DNA of 64,000 nucleotides from the sequence record NC_047754.1; one strand, given 5' to 3'. The position numbers were made by a program, and so were the translations under genes. Source of the stretch: Escherichia phage phiAPCEc03. The notes below the pieces were generated by a model, which had not been told where the DNA came from, did no database searches, and saw nothing but the letters and a program-made list of their open reading frames with translations. This document shows positions 21,377-62,996 of the stretch, piece by piece; within the stretch, counting starts at the first letter, position 1, and every line of letters starts with the position of its first letter.

Positions 21377-21785
21377 GATCAGTTTCCCCTAGTTCATCAA
21401 CAATTTCAAAATTATGTGTTGAGTAGTGTGGTACTACTACCAACTGGCAAAGTCTTTCAAAATTTTCCAGAGTTTGAATTTCAGAACCGTAGTTATAAAG
21501 GTTCATCTTAATAGTTCCACGATAGTCTGAGTCGATCACTCCTGCGGTATTTGCGATCATCAGATGACGCTTACCTAAAGAGCTGCGAGGAACTACCAAA
21601 CCGAACCAACCTCGCGGAATTTCCACCGCGACACCGGTGTCAATCATTAGGGATTTGCCTGGTGCAATAGCGCGTAAATCTGCAGCAGGGTTAGTACCAA
21701 AGAATGCTCGCAGGTCCATACCTGCGGCATCTTTGGAACCAATCTTAGGCATACAATCTGGATGAGTTAATTTAATTTTAATCAT
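21339..21785 (-). CDS. dut: dUTP diphosphatase
   Basis: 148 aa; motifs AGMDLRA, RSSLG, GVIDSDYRG, RGEGGFGSSG. Confidence 0.9.
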   Translation of the reverse strand: MIKIKLTHPDCMPKIGSKDAAGMDLRAFFGTNPAADLRAIAPGKSLMIDTGVAVEIPRGWFGLVVPRSSLGKRHLMIANTAGVIDSDYRGTIKMNLYNYGSEIQTLENFERLCQLVVVPHYSTHNFEIVDELGETDRGEGGFGSSGSK

Positions 21786-22657
21786 TGTTCTGCAATCTCC
21801 AAAATATCTTTTGTAAACTTATCTAATACATCTTGACCTACAGCAGCAATAGCATCCACACAGTAGGTAGGTAAATCAACCAGAATTAGGTTTCGATAAA
21901 GCAATTCTTCCGAAGCGTTTAAATTCTGTATATATTTCTGTTTTCCAGGTAGTGGAAGCTGATCAATAATATCCAGAACATTACCAAATTCACGAATAAT
22001 GTTATATCCTCGTTTCGCTCCAATACCTTCAACGCCACGGATATTATCCCCTAAATCACCCATAATTGCTTTCAGAGAGATAAACTGCTCTACATCGTCA
22101 ACATTATGGTGCTCATACATATCACGAAGATGATATTCACGACGTGTTGTGAAAGAGAAGCGAGAAACTTTATCAGTTAATAAAGTATCCCAGTCACCGT
22201 CAGTAGAAATCAACCAAACGTGGTCATATAGATGCCCGATGAGCTTAACAATATAAGCTGCCATATCATCTGCTTCTACACCACGAATAGTGAAAGTTGG
22301 AAATGTAGTTTCGCATAACTCGAAAGCATCTCTCAGATATTCGAAGAATTGTTCATCTAATGCTTTCTCCTCTTCCGTACGCTGTGAGTATTTCTCATCT
22401 CGATTCCCTTTATACTCGGGGAGATGCTCTAAGCGGAATGCAGACTTCCCTTTATCTCCTAAAACTATTGTAGTTCTAGCGGAATAAGATTTTGCTAGAG
22501 ACTGAATAGTGGAAACATAACTTGAGGCAAAGGGTTTTTTACTGTTATTATGTTTGAAGCGAAAGCCTAAGTTAGTTCCATCGACAATCATTAGGTTACG
22601 ACGGGAAGCCATTTCAGCTTCCTCTTCTTCAATAAATTTTCCCCAGGATTTACTCAT
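21782..22657 (-). CDS. Flap endonuclease / 5'-3' exonuclease (T5 D15-like)
   Basis: 291 aa, matching T5 D15 size as recalled; N-terminus LMIVDGTNLGFRFKH and acidic clusters typical of FEN family; start overlaps next stop (ATGA). Confidence 0.85.
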   Translation of the reverse strand: MSKSWGKFIEEEEAEMASRRNLMIVDGTNLGFRFKHNNSKKPFASSYVSTIQSLAKSYSARTTIVLGDKGKSAFRLEHLPEYKGNRDEKYSQRTEEEKALDEQFFEYLRDAFELCETTFPTFTIRGVEADDMAAYIVKLIGHLYDHVWLISTDGDWDTLLTDKVSRFSFTTRREYHLRDMYEHHNVDDVEQFISLKAIMGDLGDNIRGVEGIGAKRGYNIIREFGNVLDIIDQLPLPGKQKYIQNLNASEELLYRNLILVDLPTYCVDAIAAVGQDVLDKFTKDILEIAEQ

Positions 22658-28599: not shown

Positions 28600-29093
28600 A
28601 ATTTTATTCTAAGTCTAGGAATTTCAGGCTCCTCTTGATGGACTTGATAAATAACAGGGCTATTATTTACCAGAATATAGCTTATATAAGCTGGAACGTA
28701 GGATAATACAAATGGATAAGGGACTTTAGCCACATAGCATTGGTATTTTCCATTATAAATTCTAGCTGAATGCAAAACTTTAGAGGTGACAACATCATAG
28801 AACGTAGTTTTCTTCCAATTAATAAGATTTCCATCAGAATCTATAAATTGGTTACGCTTTGACCCAACTAATTGAGACAACATTGATATTCTACCCCTAA
28901 TAGGATAGAGCTTGTATGGTAATTCTTTCCGTTTCTCAAATAGAATAAGCCTACGTTGAGAAAACGTGCCAGGCAACTTCCTGTTATCTAGCACATATTT
29001 ATTATATCTTGTTGTAATTACGGAATAATCACCTTCTTGCTCAATTGATACAAACGCCCGTAATGCATAGACGGGCAATTTGAAATTAAGCAC
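28596..29093 (-). CDS. Hypothetical protein between polymerase and helicase genes
   Basis: 165 aa ORF, no recognisable motifs. Confidence 0.4.
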   Translation of the reverse strand: MLNFKLPVYALRAFVSIEQEGDYSVITTRYNKYVLDNRKLPGTFSQRRLILFEKRKELPYKLYPIRGRISMLSQLVGSKRNQFIDSDGNLINWKKTTFYDVVTSKVLHSARIYNGKYQCYVAKVPYPFVLSYVPAYISYILVNNSPVIYQVHQEEPEIPRLRIKL

Positions 29094-31653
29094 CGAGAAT
29101 CCTTTTCACGTTATCCAGATCTTTACATACAGCAATAAACTTATCATCCTTGTACTTGCTGTGGTCTGGATGCTCTTTATCCATTGCTGCTAATTTCTTA
29201 TACTCGAAATCTGCATCAAGTAATACACCCTTGACATAACGAGTATATTCATCATCATCAATACAAGCGATTGATGGGTGCTGTTTCTTCATCTTACCAC
29301 AAGAATAGTCACGAGAACCTCCAGCTTCAGAATCTGAATCAATACCAATCGGACAGCCAGGAATACTGATACCACGGTCTTTCTGAATATTACGAATCAG
29401 GATTTCATTGTATTGGTCGATCAAATCCTCACGAACAATAGCAACTACGGAATCGTGAACCAGCATAACAATCTTCATCTCTTGTTCTAGGCCAAGAGAA
29501 ATGATCTCATTATCTGCATCTACAGCACCTAAAAGGAGACTATCAGAAGAAGCAGACTGAATGATTGCATTAAATCCAGAACGAATTTCTTCACCCTGAA
29601 CGCCACGGTCTTCGGAATGGATATTATGCAGACGACGTTTACGACCAAAGTGACTATAGATAAATCCATGATTCTTGATCTGATCGTGGCACTTATCAAT
29701 CCAACGCTTAAGCTGTGGGAACTGACTGAAGTAAGTTTCGATATAGTCCTTCGCATCTGCAACAGTACATTCAACAAACGGTTCGCCTGTTTTAGCAGAT
29801 TGTTCCAGAAGAGCTTCGTTAACAGAATGCGCTACTTTAGCCGGGCCAGAGCCGTATAGAATACCGAAGGTAATTGCCTTAGCGGCCTGACGCAGCGCTG
29901 GGAATAGCTTTTTAACATCACGGGGTTCGCATTGCAGCTTAAACACCATGTGTGCGATGTTAGAGTGGAAGTCAGGGTATTTATCAGGTTCATTTCTCAT
30001 GTTGATAAATACTTGTTGCATATTTCTATCACCAGATAGAACAGCAGCATAATAAACTTCCGCAGTTGTTAAGTCCCATGCGATTACACGGTATCCCGGC
30101 GGTGCAACTACACAACCCTTAATGATAGATTCATCACGAGGTAACTGTTGCAGGTTCAGTTTACCAGAAGAACTCAGACGACCAGAAGTAGTCATATGTT
30201 CGTGGAAACCTGTACGAATGCAACCATCTGCATCAATACTCAGAAGAATCTTCTCAACATAAGTAGAGATCAGCTTAGTCAGCTTACGAATCTCTAGAAG
30301 AGTTTTAGCAATCGGATGTTGGGTTGCCAACTCATTCAGAGCTTCTGCATCCGTAGAATCTGCACCAGTATCTGTTAATTTACCAGTTGGAGTCAAACCA
30401 ACATAATCGAACAGAAGAACACGAAGTTGCTTAACAGAGTTCGGGTTAAATGCTTCATTCTGATCTTGTTCTAGCTGTTTAACTTCTGGATAAGTATACA
30501 GTTTCTCACGGGCTTTATTCAGGTTATGAGTTAACTGATACTGAGCTTCTTTCAAACGATCAATAGAGATAGGTACTCCACGATCCTCAACACGTTGCAA
30601 GAATACGCAACCAGGCATCAAAACATCATAGTACAGACTGCAAAGTTTTTCATTCTTCTCAATTTTTGGTAAGAAGAAGTTGTGCAAACGTATGGTGGCA
30701 TCTGTATCTTTCGCAGCATATGGCCACATAATATCAAACGGAATTAAATCATAGGTGAAATCTTCTTTCTTGATTTTATGTGCTTTGCAGTAATCATCTT
30801 TGAACTTATCTAGTTCGAAGTCATAGTCACCCATATCGGTATACTTCATTGCTAGAGATTTCAAGCCATGAGTACCACGACGTTCATCTAGAACATAGTG
30901 CTGCAACATGGTATCATGGAGCCTGCGTTCTTTATGTGCTTTATCAAAAGTAAGTCCCAGATGGTACTTATAAAAGTGCATATCAAACTTCAAGTTGTGA
31001 AAAACAATAGTGTGGTTTTCACTATCCAGAATTTTCTGGAGATAATATACTGCAACTTCTGTGAGACAATCAGAATCGATATATACACCCTGATATTCTT
31101 GGTGAGATATAGAAACACCAAGCAGATAACCATCTCTACAGTATAGTGCTGAGGTTTCGGAGTCGAATGCGACAGGTCCGATAACCATATTATACACCAT
31201 CTTGATATATTCTTCTGCCTCATCAGGGTCAGTAATAGGACGGTAATCACCAGCTTTTGCAATCTTCTCACGACCATTGATAATATCGTGGATATTCTCT
31301 ACTGTTGCATCAAAAACTGGTTTCATCTCAGGTTTAAAGTGTAACTGGGCTGGGCTGATACTCGCAATCCAGTTAGCATATCCATTATACTCTACACGTT
31401 TACCGGTATAATCACCAATACCTTTCTTACCTGCAAAGTACAGAAAAGGTTCGGCACCTACCAGTATAACAAAATCATAATCATTCGGGTCAAATGGGTT
31501 TTCCGGAGTCCCGATAGTAATATGCTTTTTGAGCAAACGACCGGATAACTTCTCGTTACACATATGGAATACATCAACTTCCTCGCCGTATAGCTGGAAA
31601 TGTTTATCATAACGAGTGTTATTTAGGGCTTTATCAACTACTGCGATTTTCAA
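29086..31653 (-). CDS. DNA polymerase, family A, with 3'-5' exonuclease domain (TTG start)
   Basis: 855 aa, matching T5 polymerase size as recalled; exo motif VAFDSET; Pol A motifs RRLAKAITFGILYGSG and HDSVV; SD GAGGAG 7 nt before TTG at 31653. Confidence 0.9.
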   Translation of the reverse strand: MKIAVVDKALNNTRYDKHFQLYGEEVDVFHMCNEKLSGRLLKKHITIGTPENPFDPNDYDFVILVGAEPFLYFAGKKGIGDYTGKRVEYNGYANWIASISPAQLHFKPEMKPVFDATVENIHDIINGREKIAKAGDYRPITDPDEAEEYIKMVYNMVIGPVAFDSETSALYCRDGYLLGVSISHQEYQGVYIDSDCLTEVAVYYLQKILDSENHTIVFHNLKFDMHFYKYHLGLTFDKAHKERRLHDTMLQHYVLDERRGTHGLKSLAMKYTDMGDYDFELDKFKDDYCKAHKIKKEDFTYDLIPFDIMWPYAAKDTDATIRLHNFFLPKIEKNEKLCSLYYDVLMPGCVFLQRVEDRGVPISIDRLKEAQYQLTHNLNKAREKLYTYPEVKQLEQDQNEAFNPNSVKQLRVLLFDYVGLTPTGKLTDTGADSTDAEALNELATQHPIAKTLLEIRKLTKLISTYVEKILLSIDADGCIRTGFHEHMTTSGRLSSSGKLNLQQLPRDESIIKGCVVAPPGYRVIAWDLTTAEVYYAAVLSGDRNMQQVFINMRNEPDKYPDFHSNIAHMVFKLQCEPRDVKKLFPALRQAAKAITFGILYGSGPAKVAHSVNEALLEQSAKTGEPFVECTVADAKDYIETYFSQFPQLKRWIDKCHDQIKNHGFIYSHFGRKRRLHNIHSEDRGVQGEEIRSGFNAIIQSASSDSLLLGAVDADNEIISLGLEQEMKIVMLVHDSVVAIVREDLIDQYNEILIRNIQKDRGISIPGCPIGIDSDSEAGGSRDYSCGKMKKQHPSIACIDDDEYTRYVKGVLLDADFEYKKLAAMDKEHPDHSKYKDDKFIAVCKDLDNVKRILGA

Positions 31654-43304: not shown

Positions 43305-43725
43305 TTTCTCAACAAATTAATTGCAAATACTGAAGTGGGGTGGCAACTTCCACTTTCACGCTGCGCTGCTGCTTTGCTATACCGCACAAATCCTTGAGGA
43401 TGGCCGCTAAGCCAGATTTGCTCACCTAATGCTTCATATACTAGCTCATACTAGATGCAATATAACTTACAGAATCACGTCTCGGAGTTTTTCACTCCTC
43501 CCGTCTCACTTCACAACCACCTCTGTCTAGGTTGCTTCGAGGCCTTACCAGGGTTCCTACGGGACGCAGATCGCTAAGTATTCTATTAACTATTTGTTTA
43601 AAAACTAACACGTAACAGTTAAAACAACCCTTAATGGGGCAGCCTAACTGTTCCGTATCGCGGATTGTAAACAAGAAAAATTAGCAAAATCAATTTTTAC
43701 TAATGTCTCTCAATTCAATATAAAT

Positions 43726-57375: not shown

Positions 57376-57404
57376 TTGCTAAACGCTTCAAATTCTCGTA
57401 TAAT
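57376..57404 (+). promoter_or_regulatory. T5-type early promoter
   Basis: TTGCTA at 57376-57381, 17-bp spacer, TATAAT at 57399-57404. Confidence 0.7.
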
Positions 57405-57442: not shown

Positions 57443-57958
57443 ATGGCTAAGCAGAAAAACGCAAAAACTCAAGCAGCTCCGGCAGTTAAAACTTTCCCGA
57501 AGACTGAGGCTAATCGCAAAGCTCGCCTGGAACGTCACCTGCGTAAGCATCCTACCGATGCTCAGGCTGCACAAGCACTGAATAATCCGGCTCCGATTCG
57601 TCAAAAGCCGAAGGCTAAGAACGCAACTCGTTCTGTAGCCCGCCTTGTGACCTATGTACAGGGTTACGGTCACAAATCTGTTCCAGTAGTACTGAGTTTC
57701 AATGCTGGAGCAGAATTGTTCCCTCGTAATGGCATGGCCATGAAAGATTACGAGAAAGCAGTTAACCAGAAGCGTAAACCAACAGCAGATGTATTGCGTG
57801 ATACTCGTGGACAGTTTGGTTCTGTTAAGCCAAATATCTTTGGCGTAGAGTATAGTAAAGATAATGTTCGTGCTCTGTGTTACGGTATAGGCATTAAGTT
57901 CACTGGTGATTCTGCTTGTAAATCTGCTAAACCAGCTCGCAAGCGTAAAGCGAAGTAA
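57443..57958 (+). CDS. Basic, Lys/Arg-rich putative nucleic-acid-binding protein
   Basis: 171 aa, basic N- and C-termini (KQKNAKTQ..., ...KPARKRKAK); SD AAGGAAA. Confidence 0.5.
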   Translation: MAKQKNAKTQAAPAVKTFPKTEANRKARLERHLRKHPTDAQAAQALNNPAPIRQKPKAKNATRSVARLVTYVQGYGHKSVPVVLSFNAGAELFPRNGMAMKDYEKAVNQKRKPTADVLRDTRGQFGSVKPNIFGVEYSKDNVRALCYGIGIKFTGDSACKSAKPARKRKAK

Positions 57959-58021
57959 TAGATAAATAGGGGCTTCTGCCCCTACAATCTACTAATTCTC
58001 TAACTAATCAAGGATATTTTT

Positions 58022-58237
58022 ATGTTCTCTAAGAAACCACGTTCTGTTACTGAAATCGTTGCTTCCTTTACCACTATCACTGATGAGCTTCAAGCTCGTA
58101 TTGAGGCTGATCAAAAAATCGCTGCTGATATTCAGAAACAGCAGGAAGAACTCGCTTTAAAGTTGGCTGAAACCAACAAGAGTGAAAAATCTGCCCAAAC
58201 TATTATGGAAAATATCCTTAAACTGCTGGGCAAGTGA
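58022..58237 (+). CDS. Hypothetical small protein
   Basis: 71 aa ORF followed by hairpin GGGGGCGAAAGCCCC. Confidence 0.45.
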   Translation: MFSKKPRSVTEIVASFTTITDELQARIEADQKIAADIQKQQEELALKLAETNKSEKSAQTIMENILKLLGK

Positions 58238-58278
58238 TTTAAATCAGGGGGCGAAAGCCCCTCTTATTTGGAGAAACT

Positions 58279-58515
58279 ATGCGTAATTTTGTAGCAAAGA
58301 ATGATTTTAACCGTGCTAGCACCCATAAGTCAGCTAGGGATTATACACGACTTTCTAGTCATGAGGTAATGGATACCTGTTATGAAGAGCTGGAAGGTAG
58401 CTGGAATGAATGGCCCGACTTCTCTATGGAAGAGAACTGGGATATCAGTGAGGATATGCTTCCTGGTTTTAAAGACCCCAAGAAGTGGGAGTCTATTAAA
58501 GAGACAGCTCTTTAA
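58279..58515 (+). CDS. Hypothetical small acidic protein
   Basis: 78 aa ORF with SD GGAG upstream. Confidence 0.45.
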   Translation: MRNFVAKNDFNRASTHKSARDYTRLSSHEVMDTCYEELEGSWNEWPDFSMEENWDISEDMLPGFKDPKKWESIKETAL

Positions 58516-58543
58516 TAGTTTTCTACACAATAAAGGATAAGTT

Positions 58544-59245
58544 ATGAAAGTAAAACCATTTGGTATGCTAGATATTGAATCTCTAGGAACTCCAGGAGAT
58601 TGTGGTACTACTCATATCGTAATGCCTTCTTTCGCTTTTGTGGCTATGCATGGGGTTGATAAAGACCCTGACTTAGTATTTGTTACTTTGGATGTGCAGG
58701 ATCAGCTTAATTCTGGTGCCAAAGTTACAGCATCTACTCTAGCATTCTGGATGGATCAAGCTAAAAATAGCCCGTCTGCTATTCACATTATGGAAGCTAT
58801 GAACGAGCGTAATCCAAAACTGATTGCCTTCCAAAATGGTAAACATCATTGTACTAATAAACTTGGCTCTAACTATGCTGCCTTCTCTATGGCTCAAAAT
58901 ATTATGAAGTTGGCTCTAGGCGAAAATGCTTTGTATTATGGCAATGGCCCAGAGTTTGATATGACTATCTACTCTGCAAACACGTTCCATGCTGGAACCA
59001 ATGAAGAGGTAATTCCGTGGAAATTCTGGAATTTGGGTAATGTTCGATCTCTTCGTAATCTCTGGATGCAAGCTGGATACAGTTATAAGGCTCTAGAGAC
59101 CGAAGGTATTAGCTGGGCAATAGCTAAAATGGAGAAGATGGACACCATTCGTTATGGGATATATCCGGTTAAGCACGACCCAGCATTCGATGCCTTAGTT
59201 GAGAGCTATTGTGTTGCGGCTATGATCGAAAAAATGAAAATTTGA
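58544..59245 (+). CDS. DEDDh-type 3'-5' exonuclease-like protein
   Basis: 233 aa; candidate Exo I MLDIESLG, Exo II FDMTIY, Exo III H-x4-D (HDPAFDALV); SD AAGGATAAG. Confidence 0.55.
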   Translation: MKVKPFGMLDIESLGTPGDCGTTHIVMPSFAFVAMHGVDKDPDLVFVTLDVQDQLNSGAKVTASTLAFWMDQAKNSPSAIHIMEAMNERNPKLIAFQNGKHHCTNKLGSNYAAFSMAQNIMKLALGENALYYGNGPEFDMTIYSANTFHAGTNEEVIPWKFWNLGNVRSLRNLWMQAGYSYKALETEGISWAIAKMEKMDTIRYGIYPVKHDPAFDALVESYCVAAMIEKMKI

Positions 59246-59551: not shown

Positions 59552-60190
59552 ATGACTACTCGTATTTCTAAAACTCGCGCTCTGGCAACTATCAAATCTC
59601 TGGAAGCTAAAATCCGTAAAGCTACTGAACAACAGCTTCTGATCGCTGTTGGTGAAGGTAAGGATAAAAATAAGGTTGTAGTTGGCGCTGCAATCGAAGT
59701 AGACGATCTATCTGCTCGTATTAAGGCAGATTTCCAATCTCTCCTAGATATGATGTCCCAGCGTGATCGTATCAAAGCTGCTCTGATTAAGAGCAATGCG
59801 GAAACAATCGTTGAGATTGGCTCTCGTAAGATGACTGTTGCGGAAGCAATTGAAGCTAAGCGTTCTATGGAGCTTAAAGCTCAGCTGCTGGCTAACATGC
59901 GTAAGCAGTTCCATGCCGCTACGGTTAAGTTTAATACGCAGAAAGCACAGTTTGATGCTAAATATGAGCGTTTGCAGGATAGCATGGCTACCCGCGATAA
60001 GAAAACTTCCGAAGATGAAGTTAAAATGCAGCTCAACCTGCTGGAACTCAAGAATACTCCATTCTTGATTGATCCGCTGGAACTGGAGAAGCTGATTAAG
60101 CAGCATGACGAGGAATACCAGGACTTTGCAACAAATGTTGACTTTGTTCTGTCCGAGTCTAACGCCTCTACCTTCATTGAAGTAGAGTAA
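59552..60190 (+). CDS. Hypothetical protein
   Basis: 212 aa ORF with SD AAGGAAG; preferred over the antisense ORF 59744..60331. Confidence 0.55.
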   Translation: MTTRISKTRALATIKSLEAKIRKATEQQLLIAVGEGKDKNKVVVGAAIEVDDLSARIKADFQSLLDMMSQRDRIKAALIKSNAETIVEIGSRKMTVAEAIEAKRSMELKAQLLANMRKQFHAATVKFNTQKAQFDAKYERLQDSMATRDKKTSEDEVKMQLNLLELKNTPFLIDPLELEKLIKQHDEEYQDFATNVDFVLSESNASTFIEVE

Positions 60191-62339: not shown

Positions 62340-62420
62340 GTAACACTGCCGTCCTAGTATAATTGGTATTATTAAGCCGTAACTGGTGGAAGATGTAGGT
62401 TCGAATCCTACGGTCGGTAA
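62340..62420 (+). ncRNA. tRNA-like element with canonical T-arm (possible degenerate tRNA)
   Basis: Canonical T-arm GTAGG-TTCGAAT-CCTAC at 62395-62411 and D-loop-like TAGTATAATTGGTA; I could not fold a full cloverleaf by hand. Confidence 0.3.
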
Positions 62421-62921: not shown

Positions 62922-62996
62922 CGGGGTGTAGTCTAAGGGAGAGGCAGGAGTCTTCTAAATTCCTTTATGCAGGTTCGAATCCTGTCACCTCGGCCA
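62922..62996 (+). tRNA. tRNA-Arg (anticodon UCU), CCA encoded
   Basis: Hand-folded cloverleaf: acceptor CGGGGTG/CACCTCG (one G-U), U8, D-stem GTCT/AGGC, anticodon stem GGAGT/ATTCC with loop CT-TCT-AA, T-arm GCAGG-TTCGAAT-CCTGT, discriminator G then CCA. Confidence 0.7.

Follow-up and report, generated by a model that had tools for sequence, protein, structure and literature searches.

The closest known counterpart of the protein considered here is exonuclease A of phage T4 (DexA; PDB 8kel and 8ken), a DNA exonuclease of the Pfam family PF16473 that assembles as a homo-oligomer (dimer/tetramer), scavenges host DNA in T4 and discriminates 5hmC from C. Its catalytic residues were reported by Kang et al. 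(NAR 2025, PMC12153337; the legend there prints 'E12' where the sequence has E9), who also reported that W152 contacts DNA bases. The founding member of PF16473 is Rv2179c of Mycobacterium tuberculosis (PDB 4hec), a bacterial protein with a 155-residue chain that has been described as an exoribonuclease. Another protein of the DexA family with conserved catalytic residues is the 'HREX' defence nuclease EcD, whose likeness to the T5 protein we take from the published description; unlike the phage-encoded T5 exonuclease it is a host-encoded defence protein that attacks 5hmC-containing phage DNA (PMC12153337). The classical DEDDh exonucleases E. coli RNase T, the epsilon subunit of Pol III (DnaQ), ERI1/3'hExo and REXO2/Orn have the fold and the Exo I, II and III motifs with H-x4-D in common with the T5 protein. 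A literature search returned no paper matching T5.087, the T5 gene of interest here, or PF16473, and Rv2179c appeared only in mycobacterial papers outside the subject of this enzyme family.

The window, that is, the whole stretch of 64,000 nucleotides from Escherichia phage phiAPCEc03 that was analysed, is a segment of a T5-like siphovirus genome (Tequintavirus, Demerecviridae). Over the 2.2 kb around the exonuclease gene the identity to Escherichia phage VEc33 is 98.5%, and 439 phage records match this region. The features that define the setting of the gene are the following.

~0-21 kb, plus strand: late structural genes
~21-49 kb, minus strand: replication genes
21782-22657, in the minus-strand replication block: 5'-3' flap nuclease
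29086-31653, minus strand: family-A DNA polymerase ORF of 855 codons with its own PF01612 3'-5' exonuclease domain
~50-64 kb, plus strand: early nucleotide-metabolism genes
57376..57404, plus strand: candidate sigma-70-like promoter, TTGCTA-17-TATAAT, ahead of the T5.089 ortholog (consensus scan, 10/12 positions)
57443..57958, plus strand: T5.089 ortholog, the conserved upstream neighbour of the partner/nuclease pair (Pfam DUF7022, 1.3e-76)
58532-58537, plus strand: AAAGGA, Shine-Dalgarno sequence for the exonuclease, 6 nt ahead of the start codon
58544..59245, plus strand: exonuclease coding sequence, ATG start, 233 aa and stop

The exonuclease ORF was correctly delimited in the earlier note, with an ATG, 233 codons and AAAGGA 6 nt upstream, and its counterpart in T5 is the orthologous gene T5.087 (YP_006915.1, 94% identity). 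It follows the orthologs of nrdA/nrdB-frd-thy-rnh-T5.090-T5.089-T5.088 in the early block, as its description as lying among small early genes implied. The replication block, which also contains an SMC-like ATPase, holds the polymerase with its own PF01612 domain, and the proposal that the enzyme is separate from the polymerase proofreading domain is thereby borne out. It is the only stand-alone 3'-5' exonuclease that we found in T5-like phages in this analysis. According to the T5 record, the early promoter P-H207 sits just upstream of T5.089; the candidate at 57376..57404 is probably its equivalent and is likely to drive transcription of the exonuclease gene.

The T5.089 ortholog keeps its position in the loci L004, L005, L012, L013 and L015-L018. 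Between it and the T5.088 ortholog the window contains an extra ORF of 71 aa (58022-58237, plus strand), coiled-coil-like and belonging to phrog_2380, to which PHROG assigns no function. The T5 reference has no annotated gene at this place, and the ORF, which is flanked by terminator-like GC-rich hairpins (57966-57985 and 58247-58262), looks like a small inserted gene cassette. Several relatives have in the same interval an unrelated gene of 64-65 aa, with the DUF7022 gene on one side and the partner/exonuclease gene on the other (L004 5498-5695; L015 360-554; L014 1-56). It matches PF21825, which precomputed tables name 'Sequestin' and the copy of Pfam that we searched names 'crAss001_48 related protein'. 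One metagenomic T5-like relative carries a NADAR-domain gene (PF08719) directly after RNase H (L004 3619-4107), and none was seen at that position in the window. Downstream of the exonuclease gene lies the T5.085 ortholog (59552-60190, plus strand; 212 aa, helical and charged), which RefSeq and PHROG 1491 label 'tail fiber protein', a doubtful label since the gene sits among early genes and far from the structural module. Two tRNA genes downstream of the early block (62348-62419 and 62922-62993, plus strand; Rfam RF00005, 35.9 and 49.3 bits) are consistent with the T5 tRNA region.

Active site and family of the exonuclease

The residues on which the assignment turns lie in three motifs.

58565..58588, plus strand: Exo I motif MLDIESLG, aa 8-15, with D10 (58571-58573) and E12 (58577-58579); invariant and aligned with DexA D7 and E9
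58955..58972, plus strand: Exo II motif FDMTIY, aa 138-143, with D139 (58958-58960) inside an invariant GNGxxFD block; aligned with DexA D119
59174..59200, plus strand: Exo III motif HDPAFDALV, aa 211-219, with H211 (59174-59176) and D216 (59189-59191), of the 'h' type H-x4-D and not Y-x3-D; aligned with DexA H186 and D191

The pentad D10/E12/D139/H211/D216 is invariant in an alignment of 23 homologs with identities down to 35%, and it stays invariant in an alignment of 19 sequences extending as far as T4 DexA (18% identity); the three motifs are therefore not a product of chance. Although the two proteins belong to a common family, their identity is only ~16-18%, and BLASTP against T4 DexA gave no significant alignment, while hhalign gave a marginal one (E 2.5e-4, probability 43%, residues 8-172). 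In an alignment bridged by intermediate sequences taken from an exhaustive HMM search, D10, E12, D139, H211 and D216 nonetheless correspond to DexA D7, E9, D119, H186 and D191, and W162 corresponds to DexA W152. Because the bridged alignment matches the whole pentad to that of DexA, the motif reading of the earlier note is right in every detail and the ORF encodes a DEDDh 3'-5' exonuclease of the Rv2179c/DexA family PF16473, its class and active site being computed. The protein scores 32.4 bits against PF16473, for which the gathering cut-off is 27 and T4 DexA scores 79.9 bits; most homologs have a precomputed match to the same profile, and PHROG 255 'exonuclease' matches with an E value of 4.1e-52. 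The enzyme is thus of a known kind that RefSeq, Pfam and PHROGs already recognise. In the exhaustive HMM search the T5.087 clade proved small, with 12 representatives (at 50% identity) at E<=1e-30 and 33 at E<=1e-10, and it grades into a larger set of Rv2179c-like proteins of ~170-200 aa (734 at E<=1e-3).

PDB sequence searches with the single protein and with the 23-sequence profile returned nothing or spurious armadillo-repeat matches, and they do not link the T5 protein with Rv2179c; a comparison of folds was therefore needed. The structure prediction that had been proposed as a check gave an RNase H-like alpha/beta nuclease fold which can be superposed on solved DEDDh members, and the best structural match of the model is the DNA exonuclease T4 DexA. 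Compared with Rv2179c, the modelled T5 protein carries extra insertions at a beta-hairpin (92-106), a loop (150-166) and a helix (181-199). The term 'DnaQ/RNase T-like' used in the earlier note holds for the DEDDh fold and for H-x4-D, as found in RNase T and DnaQ, but not at the level of sequence profiles: the Pfam RNase_T profile (PF00929) does not pick up the protein at E<=10, and the likeness to the RNase T family is structural only. The T5 protein further differs from the classical DEDDh enzymes in not being part of a polymerase or holoenzyme.

Origin of the metallopeptidase label

Public records of the gene are divided between 'exonuclease' (the RefSeq re-annotation and PHROG-based pipelines), 'metallopeptidase' and 'hypothetical protein'. 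The T5 record carries the note 'identified by match to InterPro family IPR000834', and the record of Serratia phage Slocum cites YP_006915.1 as 'putative metallopeptidase'. A large share of the public records that we sampled in GenBank and UniProt use this name. IPR000834 is the zinc-carboxypeptidase (M14) entry, built with two short PROSITE patterns, of which signature 2 reads H-[STAG]-x(3)-[LIVME]-x(2)-[LIVMFYW]-P-[FYW]. A regular expression written from this pattern matches the protein at one segment, and just 12 of 20000 shuffles of the exonuclease sequence match it as well.

58988..59020, plus strand: HAGTNEEVIPW, aa 149-159, match to the signature-2 pattern

This match, the IPR000834 note in the T5 record and the frequency of the label among the sampled records make up the case for a metallopeptidase, a reading to which we give virtually no credence. 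The pattern is short and is kept in only 7 of 22 homologs, and the segment forms the lowest-confidence loop of the structure model. Zinc-carboxypeptidase signature 1 and HExxH are both absent from the sequence, and no Pfam peptidase profile matches at E<=10. With a nuclease fold, no peptidase profile and an unconserved pattern, the metallopeptidase reading is refuted computationally. The label is a probable false positive of a chance pattern match at aa 149-159 that has since been propagated, and it should be retired from the records of T5-like phages and from UniProt.

Linked partner gene and conserved hairpin ahead of the exonuclease

Two further elements stand immediately before the exonuclease gene.

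58279..58515, plus strand: T5.088 ortholog, 78 aa; an invariant basic motif at the N terminus is followed by an acidic, Trp-rich tail, pI 4.7 (PHROG 4586; weak DUF7230 match)
58486..58525, plus strand: mRNA hairpin with an 18 bp stem and the 4-nt loop ACAG, overlapping the last codons and stop of the partner gene (dG -19.7 kcal/mol, z -4.3)

The partner occurs in 543 phage records and the nuclease in 585, and a partner-type gene stands directly before the nuclease in every lineage inspected, namely T5, Slocum, Priunavirus PR1 and eight divergent metagenomic lineages. One continuous ORF encodes both in Klebsiella phage Sugarland (CPT_Sugarland_122, 334 aa) and in four other protein clusters; the fusion proteins in our homolog set are P0015, P0019, P0021, P0022 and P0027. 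One fused protein is identical on contigs of three independent samples, so the fusion is not a sequencing error. The fused genes keep an internal AAAGGA-N6-ATG before the nuclease part, and the PHROG 255 profile covers both parts, with the partner at profile positions 75-147. A programmed frameshift joining T5.088 to the nuclease was considered for this window and is excluded by the in-frame TAA at 58538-58540, directly before the ATG. Fusion is the arrangement of Sugarlandvirus-type phages, and T5.088-like partner/exonuclease coordinates in relatives are L008 2228-3232, L005 6001-7005, L004 6001-6975 and L015 601-1578. A third arrangement, besides separate and fused, is seen in Providencia phage PR1, where the partner-like gp121 overlaps the 5' end of the annotated exonuclease gene gp122 by 59 nt in another frame (L009 1774-2067 and 2009-2737).

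The N-terminal motif of the partner, in consensus form RNxVxKxDFNR..HKS..DYxR, has R2, N3, V5, D9, N11, R12, H16, D21, Y22, R24 and E29 invariant and K7, F10, K17 and S18 nearly so, and it is followed by a variable, very acidic and Trp-rich stretch. In an AF2 model of a natural fusion the nuclease core reaches a pLDDT above 90, whereas the partner part, for which the alignment was shallow, has a single helix and a pLDDT of 35-62; the prediction contains no folded N-terminal domain. Given this low model confidence, the partner looks like a flexible tail or a short linear motif and not like a folded domain. The N-terminal motif has no paralogs in the 64-kb window. Beyond Demerecviridae our search for the linkage of motif and nuclease gave only a weak match in Phapecoctavirus, which is not Pfam DUF7230 and beside which no exonuclease lies. 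What sets the T5 clade apart from T4 is the upstream hairpin together with a DUF7230-like protein that is an obligate companion of the nuclease, separate or fused; in T4 the ORF upstream of DexA, dexA.1, is unrelated and gives no alignment with T5.088 at E<=100.

The hairpin ends 18 nt before the exonuclease ATG, and across loci the distance to the start codon is 13-21 nt. We found an equivalent in all 15 T5-like loci examined, including those in which it lies inside a fused ORF. The stem is conserved at its base (GGGA.TCTA / TAGA.TTTCT) and variable further in. Among nine distinct non-fused sequences, 93.7% of cells are paired; sliding the 3' partner by 1-3 columns lowers this to 35-52%. Changes on both sides are seen in 8 of the 18 pairs, and the observed covariation score was reached by none of 500 shuffles. 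Five fused-type sequences gave a similar picture, with 92.3% pairing against 29-46% when slid. The covariance model scores 58.9 bits on the plus strand against 23 bits on the minus strand, and this asymmetry, together with conserved G-U pairs, indicates that the hairpin is a structure of the sense-strand RNA. It has no match in Rfam, and the covariance model revealed no second copy in the 64-kb window. The next best match (19.6 bits, 43674-43710, minus strand; rough E 0.014) is AT-rich and probably due to chance. A role as a simple intrinsic terminator was considered and is unlikely, since the stem itself takes up the U-run and since the continuous fused ORFs, which have no U-run, contain the hairpin too. 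The most natural guess for its role is translational control, or else processing or stabilisation of the nuclease cistron.

It is conceivable, though in our judgement quite unlikely, that the disordered partner, the covarying hairpin and the DEDDh enzyme form a module specific to Demerecviridae. In such a module the partner would target or restrain the nuclease, either as a DNA-mimicking acidic inhibitor that guards the nicked genome of T5 or as an adaptor that leads the enzyme to a target in the host or its immunity, and the hairpin would be an operator by which the pair sets nuclease dosage.

Substrate and role during infection

Taken as a whole, the protein is very probably a stand-alone two-metal-ion DEDDh exonuclease with a role of the replication/repair or clean-up type, substrate and role being those that its relatives and setting suggest. 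By analogy with solved family members, D10 and E12 (Exo I), D139 (Exo II) and D216 (Exo III) would hold two Mg2+ ions, and H211 would act as the general base that activates the water attacking the last phosphodiester of a substrate with a free 3'-OH. Judged from fold and residue conservation, 5'-mononucleotides would then be released one by one. The gene is an early, second-step-transfer gene, most likely co-transcribed with the T5.089 and T5.088 orthologs, and its ribosome-binding site is closely preceded by the structured mRNA hairpin; the enzyme in all likelihood acts jointly with the small T5.088-like protein to which it is fused in some relatives.

The sequence does not discriminate between sugars, and substrate preference cannot be read from it; DNA is the substrate of DexA, the nearest structure, but RNA is that of Rv2179c and RNase T. 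The main rival is accordingly an enzyme that acts mainly on RNA or oligoribonucleotides, like Rv2179c or Orn/REXO2, with RNA 3' tails, primer fragments released by RNase H or nanoRNAs as substrates. We regard this as rather unlikely, for the single best structural match is to DexA, W162 occupies the place of the DexA residue reported to contact DNA bases, and PF00929 fails to match even at the permissive threshold used. For the DEDDh exonuclease of the preferred reading, the likeliest substrates, as for T4 DexA, would be the 3' ends of ssDNA in tails, nicks, gaps and oligonucleotides. The enzyme may serve the replication, recombination or repair of phage DNA, or the clean-up of oligonucleotides, alongside the phage 5'-3' flap nuclease, an SbcCD-like pair and RNase H.

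The earlier note had also offered host DNA degradation, nucleotide scavenging and destruction of nucleotide second messengers as possible functions. The first two would make the protein the T5 equivalent of DexA in host takeover, finishing the breakdown of host DNA to mononucleotides for scavenging, as the common family, the structural match to DexA and the adjoining nucleotide-metabolism genes might suggest. We consider this very unlikely. Host DNA in T5 infection is half degraded in ~4 min by pre-early A1, which is reported to be essential and sufficient, and the products are dephosphorylated by Dmp and excreted while nucleotides are synthesised de novo (Annor et al., bioRxiv 10.64898/2026.04.02.716235). 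Half-degradation by A1 precedes the second-step transfer that delivers the exonuclease gene, and this timing, together with excretion and de novo synthesis, argues against both a primary role in host DNA destruction and scavenging of the DexA type. Both proposals thus fit T5 poorly: unlike T4 with its scavenging DexA, T5 does not recycle host DNA, and the enzyme is probably not a host-DNA-scavenging one. Nor does the discrimination of 5hmC from C by DexA have an obvious counterpart here, since T5 DNA is unmodified.

The third proposal is not plausible for cyclic messengers, which lack the 3'-OH end that the chemistry requires. A broader version, in which the nuclease with its small partner counters host defence by destroying 3'-ended immune nucleic acids (linear oligonucleotide signals, retron msDNA, guide or primer molecules), strikes us as highly improbable. 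PADLOC, including its CBASS-associated nucleases such as Cap18, and NCBIfam gave no match for nuclease or partner, and the anti-retron activity of T5 has already been assigned to Rad/ORF071 (PMC10644984). The near-universal conservation of the gene and its fixed place beside replication and nucleotide genes are moreover more like those of a housekeeping function than of an accessory anti-defence gene.

The enzyme itself is an ordinary exonuclease of the DexA/Rv2179c type, and the value of the present analysis is mainly corrective. What it adds is an explanation of the metallopeptidase error, the DUF7230-like protein as an obligate companion of the nuclease, separate or fused, and the hairpin with its covarying pairs. 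The linked partner and hairpin offer concrete handles on how a phage controls a non-specific nuclease. As T5 leaves its DNA unmodified and does not reuse the nucleotides of its host, a study of its exonuclease would reveal the work of a DexA-type enzyme beyond the T4 model.
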